From a virus: 64,000 bases of DNA. Positions 1 through 32,100 of the stretch are shown here, piece by piece. The translations under genes and the position numbers were made by a program. The notes beneath the pieces are model-generated. The model worked only from the letters and a program-made list of their open reading frames with translations, ran no database searches and was not told the origin of the DNA. Within the stretch, counting starts at the first letter, position 1, and each line of letters begins with the position of its first letter. Location: positions 29,864-93,863 of IMG/VR virus record IMGVR_UViG_3300045972_000146, one strand, 5' to 3'.

Positions 1-119
1 AATGAGAAATCTTTCTGATTTTTCCATAAGTGAGGAAGTTGCAGTCGGGGATACAGCAACTGAAAGCAAACGATAGTATCCAAAACCATTTCAGAGTTTA
101 TCAACATGTAAAACAATTA

Positions 120-1950
120 ACGTCTAAGTTAGGACCTATTAATATGCACACACAGGCAGTGTGGTGTTAGGGATAAACTTGCCTATTAGACAATAGTATG
201 CGCTATTAAAAAAGCAAGTCCCATGTGATGGAATTTAAAGTCACTACAAAAAAGAGTGCGGGGTTGAACTCCTAGCAACAGCCTATGCATTGTAGGAGGG
301 TCTTTAACTGCGTTTGTAACGTACATAGTTAGAGTAGGTATAACGGCGACCAAACAAGACACGTTATTAAAAATGGTACAGCTTTGGAACTGTATCGACT
401 GTTGAACAAGGGTAACTGCACGAACAAAACCACTTACAGGTAACTCTGTATAATAGTACTGCGTAGGTTATCGATCAATTAATTATTAATAATATAAACC
501 GGCTAGAAATGCGCGGGGTGGAAATCCAATAATTAATTCAAGCTATAGATTACACTTTGAGGGTTAAAGACCCTATGGCCCATGGACCAGTGAAATAGCG
601 ACCTGTCAAGTTATTAAGTTTGAGACAGATAAAAAATACACAAACTAGCCTTACTAATTCACTGGCTACAATAAAGTGGAGAATTAGCCCTAGTATGCTT
701 TCAAGGTTAATCGAAAGTGGGAGGTGCATGTGCTGGTACGCATGACAAGAGCTTCAAGGCGAAAGCCGAAAACCGGGCACGCACGGTATAATGCAAACCG
801 AAACCTAATTTACGCTGTTTCATAATTTTCAGCCGTATTGAAAAAGATTAATCCCCTGGGGTAGGGGCGAAGTTTATCCTGCCAGACAAAAAGAACGCCA
901 CGTCTTTAGTCAAATTTCACGAACGTATGGGAAAGCCGTTCACCCAAATTGCATATTAGTAGGCTCTTCCCTGTCTCGGAAATAGCCGAAGGAAGTCGAA
1001 GACTATTCAATCCGTGCGACAGAAGCTCCTGTATACAACTAGTGGAAGGGTCAAACACTTAAAAACCATATTTAAGGTGGTCGAAAGCTATCACATTTCT
1101 AAGCGACTAAAAAGCATAGAAAGATCGATAATTAGTACACTCCCTATCTGAAGTCTAGAACCCTGGGAGCATTCTACCCAGATAAAGGTCAAAAGCAAGC
1201 CGGGAACTTCATGCTGTAACAGGACGGAGCCACCGTCAGATGTAGCGGAGACGGTACATTCTTGCCTGGACGATAGACGTAGTCACTAGATAGGATAAAA
1301 TGCGTTATTTTTCTCAGACAATTTCAAGACTGCGCGGACTTCAAGGGCCGCTACAATATAGATCTTCAGAACACCGTTTATAAACCGTTGGCCTCATTTG
1401 CCAATATGAATCGACAAGGAATTGATACAAGGGTCGCAGCAAAACAACCATAGTTCTTTATTGCTTTCTTCAACAAGTAAAGTATGCCTTAAATACATTG
1501 ATATTATTATATAATTATCTATCGCGTGTCAATACGTAGATAAACCTTTCAAGCCTAGCACTTGGGGATGGAGTATGAGCCTAATTAATATAATGTAATT
1601 GTTCGAGAGACCGAAAATTGCTACAAATATCATAATTTATAAAACCCATTTTAAGCCGTTCTAAGGCATTATAAGTCAGCGTTGATACGAAAGTACTATT
1701 GTGAAAAGATAGTGGCATAGCGGAGCTGTAAATGCGTATAAAGGGCACAATTCCTAACTAATAGTTGCAGTGGGCGCAAAACCCATAGGTTAATCGTAAA
1801 TTAGCTACTTTCAAACCACAATCCCAACCCCTCTTCTAGTACCTAGCGGAAAAAAGAGCAGCGAGTGCGATCGCGGGATTATTTTCAAATTTTATCCGAA
1901 GAATTCTCATAAATGTTAAATTGGACAGTTAAACGGGCTACGGCAGAACA
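120..1950 (+). ncRNA. Putative very large structured non-coding RNA (or cluster of structured RNAs); boundaries approximate
   Basis: No ORF >=60 aa in any frame over about 2 kb. Long-range helices 135-148/950-963 (14 bp), 170-180/870-880, 705-712/846-853, 1143-1150/1287-1294 and 1494-1506/1586-1597. Many local hairpins and GNRA loops (758-767, 1686-1695). G-U wobbles favour the + strand. Confidence 0.65.
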
Positions 1951-2022
1951 TTCCAATCAAGTAGGAACTTTCAGTGATTATCAAAAACAACATTATTTAT
2001 CAAAAATAGGAGGAAACAAACA

Positions 2023-3779: not shown

Positions 3780-3845
3780 GAAGTAACGGTGATATGTTAA
3801 TCAGTGACAGAAATGATTAATAATTGGGTTCAATCCCCATACTTT
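3780..3845 (+). ncRNA. tRNA-like element (acceptor-like stem plus T-arm, no D-arm)
   Basis: gaagta 3780-85 / tacttt 3840-45; TGGG-TTCAATC-CCCA 3825-3839; middle stem ttaatca/tgattaa with a 10-nt loop. Confidence 0.55.
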
Positions 3846-9086: not shown

Positions 9087-9150
9087 GGGCATAACCCTGA
9101 GGTTCGTACCGGGGTGTCCCCGATGCGATGGGAGCGATACCCATATGCCC
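9087..9150 (+). ncRNA. tRNA-like element
   Basis: gggcata 9087-93 / tatgccc 9144-50 (7 bp); TGGG-AGCGATA-CCCA 9129-9143; internal hairpin accct...ggggt capped by GG-TTCGTA-CC. Confidence 0.55.
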
Positions 9151-9209
9151 GACTAGATAGGGGCAAGAGAAAATAAGTATTATTATTAACTAACTACAAA
9201 TTATATCAA

Positions 9210-29100: not shown

Positions 29101-32100
29101 AACGCCTAATTTATTAGGATCACTCTCGTCAATAAGGCCTACAACTTCATGCAATCCCCTTTGAACAGCTCTATCGTTTTTATCTCTATTTAATGCTAGT
29201 TTAGATATCCCTCTTTCGAATCCATTTACCATTCTTAATTCAAGAGAATTATCTGCAGATACTTTAGCTTGCTCGGCTATAATTGAGTTCCTAAAATCTC
29301 TAAGCGCTTGAACTTCATCGGTAGAATATTTCTTTATACCATTATCTTCAGTAACAAATTCTCTTTCTCCTGGGTTTTTTATATTAAATGGAATAGTCTT
29401 CTCTATCTTGCCATCCATATACTTAACCTCAACCTTGATATATGCATTATCCCATGTACTAGGATTGGTTATATCGAAGTTATTTGGAGCAGAATAGTCC
29501 TCTCCTGTAATAGTGTTCTTTCCACCATCTCTATTTGTGCCAGCAGGGATCGTATAGACGGCCACTGTGCCATTATGATGCCTATTGACTACTATTCTTA
29601 CCTTTGCAGATTTAAATGCCTCAGGATTCATTAAAAAGGCCTTCACGTGAGGCAGTTTTATATCAGCAAATAGAGTTCTGCTTATCCTATCATGCTTAAT
29701 TGACTCAGTCGCTATAATAGCTGGAGTAATATCGGCTAGTTCGTTTATTGCGGCGCTATCGTCGTCATCAAGTATATCATTAATCTCATCAGTATCTTTT
29801 ATAGAGTCTATGGCCTTTTGATTAGATTCTGTATTTGATTCGGCTGCAGTTTTCTCTGGAGATTCTTCTTCTGCCGCCTCTTCTACTAGAGTTGCTTTTT
29901 CAAGTTCTGATATCAATTTATCAGCGTCATCTGCTATTGATTCTTCTGGCTGAATATCTGGTCTATCAAATACAAACCCATCATCCTCCATATCCTCTCC
30001 AACTAGGTCCGCATTACCAGTATATCCCCCAACAGTCTCTACTGGAGTTATTTTATGTTCTGGAATAGTCTCATGCCATGGTTTTTCTGCTTCTACAGTT
30101 TCTGCGGTCTCTCCAATTGGATCAGACGAACTTTCATACGTAGGAGCAACTGGCTGTATGTCAATCTTTTCTGCCTTAACCTGATCTACTGCCTCTTTCG
30201 TTCTCTCAATTTCATTTTCAGTCTTTCTTGACTCACGATACATGTCAAGAATTTTATCAACATATATGTCGTGATCTCGCTTAGAAAGTTTATTTACTTT
30301 ATCGACTGGAGAGTTCGTTAGGTTATCTTTCATCCATGATTCATAGTTACTACTAATTGCAGCAATATGAGACAATCCTAATGGTTCAACTATTCTATTT
30401 TCTATATCCGGAATCTCTAAATCAGCTAATTCTTGTTTTACCGAAGAGAATGTAACATTGGCATCTCTCGTAGCCTCGGTTAATCCACTGGCAAATAAAG
30501 CGTCATGTAATGTTCTCGCGGCCTTCTCTCTTCTTGTATCTAAAGATTCATTTAAGTTTTCTAATTTCCTTCTAGTAAACTCATTAGTTGCTTTTGCAGT
30601 AAAGTTTATCGCATCTAATGCTTTTACAGATGCAATTGCATCAAATATGTCTTTCTTAGATTGGTCAGATATTTGATTGTCTGGATGAGATAGGTTGTGT
30701 TTATCTAAAAAATCGTTTATTGGATGATTGGCAAATTCTTCATTCTTTATGTTTACGTAGTCACTAGCACTAATAACCCCATTAATAACTTCCTGTTTTG
30801 CAGAATTCTCATGATCCATTATCAGAGAAGTCAATAACTTATGGTTTTCGGATCCAACTCCACCCGCTCTATTTGCATATCCAAGGACGGTCTTACTATT
30901 TGCAACTAGCATTGTTTTCTTTGCTATTGCAAGTTCTTCTTTAATGTCTTCGTGACTAATTCCTTCTGGTGGATTTTGCGCAAGTTTTTCTAAGTAATTA
31001 ATAACATTAGCTTCTTTACCCTGAATTTGCTTATCTACATATACATTAGTCTTGTTTAGTCTATCATTAGCCTGCATTTGAGTTAAGACGTTAGCCTTAA
31101 CGAATGCTTTTGCTTTTTGATCTTTCTGGCTATCTTGCATTTCCTTAACTACACCAATAGAACCCATCATAGAAGTATGAATTCCGGTAGTGACTATAAC
31201 GTTTTTAAAGTTATCCCATATCTTCTGTTGATACCTAGCATCATCTCCAACTCCAATTAAAGCCATGGCTGCAGAACTTGCAGACCCAGCTGTGTTTTTT
31301 AATACATCAATAAAGTTTGCACTATTTTTATTTCCAGAGCCATCCTCATATCTTTCTTGGATTAACTGTTGTGGATTTTCTTCCAAGAACGCTTCTGTAA
31401 GTCCAGCAACTACCATTTTTTTAGCAGTACGCCCAACGAACTCAGGAGCGGCTCCAATTCTAACTTTTCCAACCTTAAAATTAGATACAGATGATCCCAT
31501 CCTGCCTAATTTAGACTCGGTTATATAATCAGTAACCATTTCAGAGGTTCTATTTACAGACCCAAATAGTGATTTATCAAATTTATTGGCATTTGCAATC
31601 TTTAATTTATTGAATGGCATAGATATATAAGCATTTTCAAGCATATCTATAGGAAGTAACCCCATATATCTTCTCAAATACTCATCCATTCCTTCATTGG
31701 CATGGTTTCTAGCTGCAGATATTTCCTTATCTACTGATGTTTTTAGAAATCCAGACTTAATATCACTAATTAATTTACCTCTAGTTTCTTTTGAAAGTGC
31801 TCCATTCTTAGTTAATTCTGCAACTGCATTGTCATAATTACCAACAACGCCAGATGCCATCTCGTTAGAAATGTTCTTAGTGTCTGAATTTGCAAATTGA
31901 GCTAAAGATTTATTCCTATCTACTAATCCGAGTAATTTATTATCGTCGAATTTATCCCCATCGAATACATCTAATCCTAATTTGCTATTTAAGTTTTCAG
32001 AAAATCTCTTATCGTAACTCTGTATAGCCTGGGAATATGCTTCTGATTCTCTAGATTTAACAGAAAGATACGCATTAGACATTGCTTTTGCAACGTTGCC

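Follow-up and report, generated by a model that had tools for sequence, protein, structure and literature searches.

The 64,000-nucleotide stretch of viral DNA analysed here (hereafter the window) covers bases 29864-93863 of IMG/VR record IMGVR_UViG_3300045972_000146, a virus record of 93,863 bases that carries direct terminal repeats. Close to its 5' end lies a gene-free gap of about 1.9 kb, at window positions 77-2022, and it is this gap, together with the structured RNA that it probably encodes, that we describe. The gap lies between two + strand genes, inside a long block of genes on that strand. Its 5' boundary is the stop codon, at position 76, of a gene for 144 amino acids, and its 3' boundary is the GTG start codon, at 2023, of a gene for 160 amino acids. 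The latter heads the replication block, with a DnaB-like helicase gene about 3 kb downstream of the gap. About 2.3 kb upstream, in the same + strand block, is a 184-amino-acid gene of the ECF-type sigma-70 family with regions 2 and 4 (genome 27031-27585; L242:132-686). The major head protein of the phage is 80% identical to its counterpart in phage cr118_1 (Crassvirales, family Suoliviridae). Positions refer to the window, whose sequence is called W below, unless they are marked as genome positions or carry an L number. The sequence occurs in two sequencing runs, both of pond metagenome DNA and one of them probably its source, and their contigs show no variants.

77 to 2022, + strand: the whole gap, with no long + strand reading frame under four genetic codes and with syntenic gaps of 1.0-2.3 kb in ten other lineages
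1329 to 1440, + strand: core domain with a closing helix, a 5' hairpin and a long arm, showing covariation in 12 sequences
2023 to 2505, + strand: the 160-amino-acid gene, always next after the RNA region, with 29 representative homologues

A sequence-only reading had proposed a giant structured RNA here, at the head of the early region, in about 2 kb of DNA described as lacking any open reading frame (ORF) and as visibly richer in G+C than other intergenic DNA. The lack of ORFs was borne out, the longest in the gap being 59 amino acids. The placement at the head of the early region was not: the window begins at base 29864, and there are + strand genes on both sides of the gap. As to composition, the G+C content of the gap (0.396) is above the genome mean (0.346), but other gaps range from 0.27 to 0.42, so that the enrichment is mild.

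Related gaps and their sequence conservation

Related loci were sought by protein searches with the flanking genes, by pattern scans for conserved motifs and with a covariance model. These gave ten further lineages on viral contigs, or eleven with W: A (L004), B (L023), C (L020), D (L025), E (L033), F (L087, of which L094 is a near-identical copy type), G (L104), H (L117), I (L115) and J (L084). In each of them an ORF-poor gap is found directly upstream of a homologue of the 160-amino-acid gene, on the same strand, the shortest among these relatives being that of I (999 nt) and the longest that of E (2,302 nt). The element seems confined to an environmental sublineage, since cr118_1, although it has the helicase, lacks the gap and any match to the core model, its genes being densely packed upstream of the helicase. 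Another helicase relative, L014, has no gap and no core.

Sequence conservation within the gap is concentrated in islands. Between W and A, the helicase is 88% identical in protein, and the four-fold degenerate sites of nine flanking genes are 0.25-0.69 identical, which is near saturation; the gap nevertheless contains islands of 70-93% identity at 471-536, 1034-1083, 1260-1471, 1729-1817 and 1857-2022. Further islands are shared by W and B (117-193 and 1497-1674) and by W and D (480-588, 689-771 and 951-1068). In the closer pair, D and E, the gap is 0.77 identical as compared with 0.66 at four-fold sites, and includes a stretch of about 250 nt at 88-98%. Between W and E, eight collinear anchors with similar spacing extend across 481-1436. 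About 45% of the window gap has no detectable homologue (194-476, 589-688, 773-907, part of 1082-1278 and 1675-1742), and the stems that had been proposed in 194-476 and 589-688 fall in such sequence.

Compensatory changes in the core and in other local folds

The core, of about 110 nt, is present in all 11 lineages. The sequence of its 5' hairpin stem differs in nearly every lineage, and its long arm has conserved internal loops and a terminal hairpin loop YUCAUU. When five sequences are compared, 90.7% of cells are paired and 15 of the 28 pairs show compensatory changes, against 28-45% of cells and 3-4 pairs in slid controls. With 12 distinct sequences, 91.6% of cells are paired and the number of compensatory pairs rises to 21 of 28, against 4-13 in the slid controls. 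The covariation score of the 12 sequences is 0.647 versus at most 0.125 in the slid controls, and none of the shuffles comes up to what was observed. Shuffled and slid controls were used because RNAalifold and model-fitted alignments lean towards pairing.

A covariance model, R1, was built from five sequences and matches the window at 1322-1452. By itself it found a sixth copy of the core, in lineage B, at the expected collinear place, and following a pattern scan it picked up another six sequence types (L094, L087, L104, L117, L115 and L084/L110). The core pattern also gave at least 120 matches in prokaryote genomes, 80 of which were examined, and none of these passed the core model. In the search for relatives, L026 was discarded as a chance match inside a gene. 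We favour the + strand as the RNA strand, since two U-G pairs of the core, kept in 10 of the 12 sequences, would become mismatches if read from the opposite strand.

Consensus folds of eight blocks along the gap, the core included, were compared with column-shuffled alignments. They beat the shuffles in seven of the eight, with z-scores from -2.9 to -10 (S, -2.9; Q, -3.05; H, -3.2; M1, -3.7; T, -4.05; Y, -6.3; core, -10), block M2 (895-1020) not being significant, and in five of the seven significant blocks the + strand consensus folds better. The following elements were located in addition to the core.

117 to 192, + strand: 5' domain S, a closing helix (122-133/182-191) round two small hairpins, in W, A and B
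477 to 538, + strand: hairpin H, with an AU-rich outer stem, an inner stem and conserved loops, in W, A, D and E
697 to 718, + strand: hairpin with a conserved 10-nt loop (AAGGUUAAUC), from the consensus fold
758 to 767, + strand: GAAA-tetraloop hairpin GGCGAAAGCC, in 9 of 11 lineages
962 to 987, + strand: hairpin of 8 pairs, 6 of them compensatory, with 31 of 32 cells paired in W, A, D and E
1041 to 1067, + strand: near-invariant motif P, located 170-290 nt upstream of the core and shared by 8 of 11 lineages
1145 to 1297, + strand: domain Q, closed by 1145-1158/1286-1297, with 9 compensatory pairs in the consensus of W, A, D and E
1596 to 1620, + strand: hairpin Y1, of 9-10 pairs, in the 11-lineage alignment
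1770 to 1806, + strand: twin hairpins T, GUGGG-CGCAAAA-CCCAU and GUUAAU-CGUAA-AUUAGC, in W, A, G, H, I and J
1820 to 1880, + strand: small branched domain, 1820-1825/1875-1880 and two inner hairpins, with 3 compensatory pairs, in W and A only
1881 to 2022, + strand: conserved leader of the downstream gene, 70-82% identical between W and A, with AGGAGG at 2008-2013

Hairpin Y1 has 92 of 97 cells paired across the 11 lineages, with 6 compensatory pairs. The twin hairpins T, recognised by sequence in 6 of the 11 lineages, combine invariant loops with compensatory changes in their stems, and 47 of 48 bases of this region are identical between W and A. An 11-lineage consensus recovers three elements, namely the core, Y1 and the second T hairpin. 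Towards the 5' end, domain S has 4 compensatory pairs at 88% identity between W and B, and hairpin H has 3 with none broken; a pattern taken from the loop of H occurs in 47 viral contigs but is true only for the A, D and E types. At the 697-718 hairpin, 25 nt are 100% identical between W and lineages E and G. Motif P can form AGUG/CACU plus GGU/ACC and is thus a candidate small pseudoknot, but as the motif is invariant its pairing is beyond the reach of covariation. The GAAA hairpin sits at one or both of two fixed sites, both being occupied in lineages F and G, and this accounts for what had looked like a swap of module order between lineages.

Several details of the sequence-only reading reappear among these elements. 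All the helices that it listed are complementary in the sequence as stated; its stem 477-487/528-538 is kept in relatives as hairpin H, the closing helices of its domains at 1143-1294 and 1820-1880 were recovered in the comparative helix map, and its GAAA hairpin at 758-767 is the widespread one described above. Two short repeats also touch these folds. The 10-mer ACTAGATAGG occurs exactly twice, at 1285-1294 and 9152-9161, both times in non-coding + strand sequence; the first of them closes domain Q, the second comes after a tRNA-like element at 9087-9150, and the count allowing one mismatch is that expected by chance. The motif AGGUUAAUCG(A/U)AA is found twice in conserved blocks, at 704-716 (the loop of the 697-718 hairpin) and at 1787-1799 (the second T stem), and the first copy is also complementary to 846-853.

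How these folds are arranged bears on the main proposal of the sequence-only reading, a single giant RNA of about 1.8 kb folded as a whole, in which long-range helices would close a domain of ~830 nt. We consider this improbable. The helices exist in the window sequence, and the anchors between W and E are collinear and similarly spaced over about 950 nt. However, the 14-bp helix at 135-148/950-963 is at chance level, 34 of 60 dinucleotide shuffles holding an ungapped helix of at least 14 bp, and it is absent from lineage B, which keeps the 5' arm nearly unchanged and has no matching 3' arm. Likewise, the 5' arm of helix 170-180/870-880 is conserved in A and B, but its partner is missing at the corresponding place. 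Furthermore, the consensus folds are nearly devoid of pairs spanning more than 250 columns: the four-lineage fold of 466-1470, which clearly separates from its shuffled counterparts in score (-64.6 versus -20.0 +/- 4.2) and in compensatory pairs (46 versus 13.7), has 2 such pairs versus about 19 in shuffled alignments. A candidate long-range helix from the 11-lineage alignment, 1147-1151/1921-1925, would consist of 5 pairs, of which two are G-U in W, and is in conflict with the closing helix of domain Q. Finally, P, core and T are still kept in the lineage whose gap measures 999 nt.

As read from these comparisons, the architecture is a string of local domains and not one closed fold. The same comparisons indicate that the 3' half (about 1018-1815, some 800 nt), made up of P, Q, the core, Y1 and T, is the conserved heart of the region and that the 5' part of about 900 nt is accessory and variable, because lineage I, with the shortest gap, retains P, core and T, whereas S, H and the hairpin at 697-718 occur in sublineages only. 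The emphasis that had been laid on the 5' domain is thereby moved to the 3' half.

Tests against coding sequence, known RNA families and signals

A protein gene under a recoded stop codon, a device known in Crassvirales, was rejected. Reading TAG as glutamine, TGA as tryptophan or TAA as glutamine opens no long + strand frame in the gap, and there is no frame-specific conservation; the longest recoded frames, of 131 amino acids (- strand, TAG as glutamine) and 115 amino acids (- strand, TGA as tryptophan), are not conserved. Six-frame peptides of the gap match the gaps of relatives in several frames and on both strands simultaneously, which indicates conservation at the nucleotide level and not at the protein level. 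Conserved small ORFs likewise fail as an explanation, as no frame is conserved among the relatives' gaps. These results also bear on the possibility that the gap has no RNA function and consists of decayed genes, unannotated small genes or neutral spacer. Short ORFs of 30-77 amino acids do occur in the gaps, and the large fraction of the window gap that lacks a detectable homologue would fit such an origin. Still, no ORF is conserved either, the conserved islands exceed the identity at synonymous sites and the compensatory changes are far above the controls, so that this reading is strongly disfavoured and very improbable.

Scanning the whole window against Rfam with cmscan gave no match at the gathering score, and when 1-2600 was scanned at E<=10, all that appeared were three matches at chance level to families of no relation. 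Membership of GOLLD, ROOL, OLE, HEARO or raiA was rejected in the absence of any covariance-model match, and a group I or group II intron was rejected since there is no Rfam match and the flanking genes are complete and mutually unrelated. A blastn search of the gap against GenBank phages returned nothing. The view that this is a new structured RNA locus outside the known families is thus upheld, both by the negative Rfam result and by compensatory changes in up to 12 sequences, well above slid and shuffled controls.

No transfer RNA (tRNA) was found in the gap by ARAGORN, also at relaxed thresholds. A tRNA, transfer-messenger RNA or tRNA-like element was considered for the first T hairpin, T1, which has a 5-bp stem and a 7-nt loop, and was rejected because the flanking 'acceptor' pairing CCUA/UAGG is not conserved in lineages A and H. 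A simple scan of the genome + strand gives four T-arm-like hairpins, of which one is inside the gap at 1770. Intergenic T-arm-like hairpins (e.g. UGGG-UUCAAUC-CCCA) with a short closing stem are found at 3780-3845, 9087-9150 and genome 19246, and resemble acceptor-plus-T-arm minihelices. The gap of lineage C holds a canonical T-arm, UUGGG-UUCGAUU-CCCAA (L020:3910-3926), where ARAGORN calls no tRNA. Two phage tRNA genes, His-GTG (genome 21346-21420) and Arg-TCT (genome 25950-26025), lie 4-8 kb upstream of the gap.

Regarding transcription signals, the ECF-type promoter motif AAC-N16-CGTT does not occur in the gap and shows no enrichment across the window, sigma-70-like promoter sites occur at chance level only, and a scan of 1-2600 found no terminator-like site on the + strand. 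The + strand early region has other ORF-poor stretches of 0.5-1.4 kb (genome 17886-19310, 23037-23506 and 11854-13233); G+C is raised in two of the three (0.38 and 0.42), and none shares sequence with the gap studied here.

What the region may do

Taken together, these comparisons make it very probable that the gap contains RNA structure under selection, and we think it probable that the region as a whole represents a new family of long, structured non-coding RNA that is encoded on the + strand and built as a string of local domains. A number of observations weigh against this interpretation. Folding energies of single sequences are overall no better than those of shuffles: the minimum free energy gives z = -0.84 (+ strand) and z = -0.96 (- strand) for 120-1000 and z = +0.96 for 1018-1815, and single domains range from +0.34 to -2.6 (the latter for Y1), so that the expectation of unusually stable folding was not borne out. 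Several blocks rest on 2-4 lineages only, RNAalifold favours covarying pairs, and the consensus of blocks H and Q folds better on the - strand. As regards the proposed early transcription, the sequence was found in runs of pond DNA only and in no RNA run. The string of folds may be one RNA or, as the sequence-only reading put it as an alternative, several in tandem. Lastly, the fixed position before one gene fits a cis-acting leader too.

Such a leader, which we rank as the main rival although we consider it unlikely, would be a long 5' untranslated region controlling the 160-amino-acid gene and the replication genes behind it through processing, antitermination, stability or translation. In all 11 lineages the homologue of this gene (about 155 amino acids in the relatives) starts 420-600 nt after the core on the same strand. 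In the window the scan showed no + strand terminator-like site between the two. W and A share a conserved stretch of ~165 nt just ahead of the start codon, and the gene has a strong AGGAGG site. On the other hand, the region measures 1-2.3 kb with more than ten conserved folds, and to our knowledge bacterial and phage leaders are far smaller than that. No Rfam cis-regulatory family matches, and gene order is conserved throughout the relatives, so that the fixed linkage is weak evidence for a leader. Strong Shine-Dalgarno sites precede both genes after the RNA region (AGGAGG at 2008-2013 and AAGGAGG at 2522-2528).

The protein encoded by the 160-amino-acid gene, as searched and modelled, offers no hint of the role of the RNA region. 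Its family comprises 29 representative clusters in a large protein library, but there was no Pfam or PHROG match, tblastn against GenBank phages returned nothing and a word-index protein search returned the query itself only. The structural model, which is confident (predicted local distance difference test score, pLDDT, 89.7), has a beta domain followed by a C-terminal helix of about 48 residues, and gave no match in the PDB with Foldseek at E<=0.001.

The position of the gap also brings to mind a replication element, i.e. an origin whose folds would work either as part of a primer or R-loop transcript, like ColE1 RNA II, or as initiation signals in single-stranded DNA. The gap is indeed about 3 kb upstream of the DnaB-like helicase, at the start of the replication block, and it is structure and not coding sequence that is conserved. 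However, there are no iterons or direct repeats beyond chance, the G+C content is above the genome mean where A+T-rich DNA would be looked for, the gap is inside a block of genes all on one strand, and cr118_1 has the helicase without gap and core. The missing repeats and the high G+C make an origin role the weaker rival, and we regard it as improbable. Neither ColE1 RNA II nor phage origin transcripts exceed about 550 nt, and they belong to a defined origin; the likeness to RNA II is that of a structured RNA beside replication functions with its fold under selection, but no origin features were found in this gap.

Returning to a non-coding RNA in its own right, we tentatively favour a stable, trans-acting role, at somewhat less than even confidence. 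The gap would be co-transcribed with the flanking + strand genes, between the block of the ECF-type sigma factor and the replication genes, and the region would act as RNA. Most likely there would be one or a few stable RNAs, released or not, that bind a factor of the phage or the host or sequester it, a role also suspected for GOLLD and ROOL.

GOLLD (RF01998) is a large structured RNA of phages and prophages, often longer than 800 nt and found near tRNA genes; its 3' region is conserved, its 5' region variable (PMC12286853). The locus described here is similarly phage-borne, with a conserved 3' half of about 800 nt and a 5' half that varies in the 11-lineage module map, and this phage carries tRNA genes as well as T-arm-like hairpins nearby. 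Unlike GOLLD, which lies in tRNA islands, it is fixed before a gene of the replication block, has a length of 1.0-2.3 kb and is found in Crassvirales, and the GOLLD model does not match even at E<=10. ROOL is an ornate RNA of phages and prophages, with many local helices and no known protein partner or function (PMC12286853). The resemblance is in the construction of an ornate phage RNA from many local helices; the differences are that no model matches and that ROOL is a single, much shorter RNA with pseudoknots, whereas the sole pseudoknot candidate here is the invariant motif P. In the tRNA region of phage T4, small structured RNAs stand in tandem in a gene-free early region and are processed from a common transcript. 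The gap likewise has several structured folds in tandem in a gene-free stretch of a large phage, but no tRNA is detectable in it, and processing is conjecture here.

A bolder proposal, which we hold to be possible but doubtful, is that the locus represents a new class of ornate RNA, of about 0.8 to 2 kb, that is specific to environmental crAss-like phages and acts on its own. Such an RNA might be made at the switch to the expression of replication genes and might self-assemble or sequester a host factor, in the manner proposed for the GOLLD and ROOL nanocages. If this were true, no larger structured RNA, ribosomal RNA aside, would be known from a phage.

Few known phages are as abundant as the Crassvirales, and we found no description of a structured RNA from them in the literature searched. 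The analysis provides targets backed by covariation, i.e. the core with 21 of 28 pairs, a hairpin seen in 11 lineages and twin hairpins with invariant loops, in addition to an invariant possible pseudoknot, all at a fixed position ahead of the replication genes. With the covariance model and the alignments, metagenomes and metatranscriptomes can be searched directly. Should the region be expressed as a stable RNA, it would be a new and unusually long addition to the few large phage RNAs exemplified by GOLLD and ROOL.

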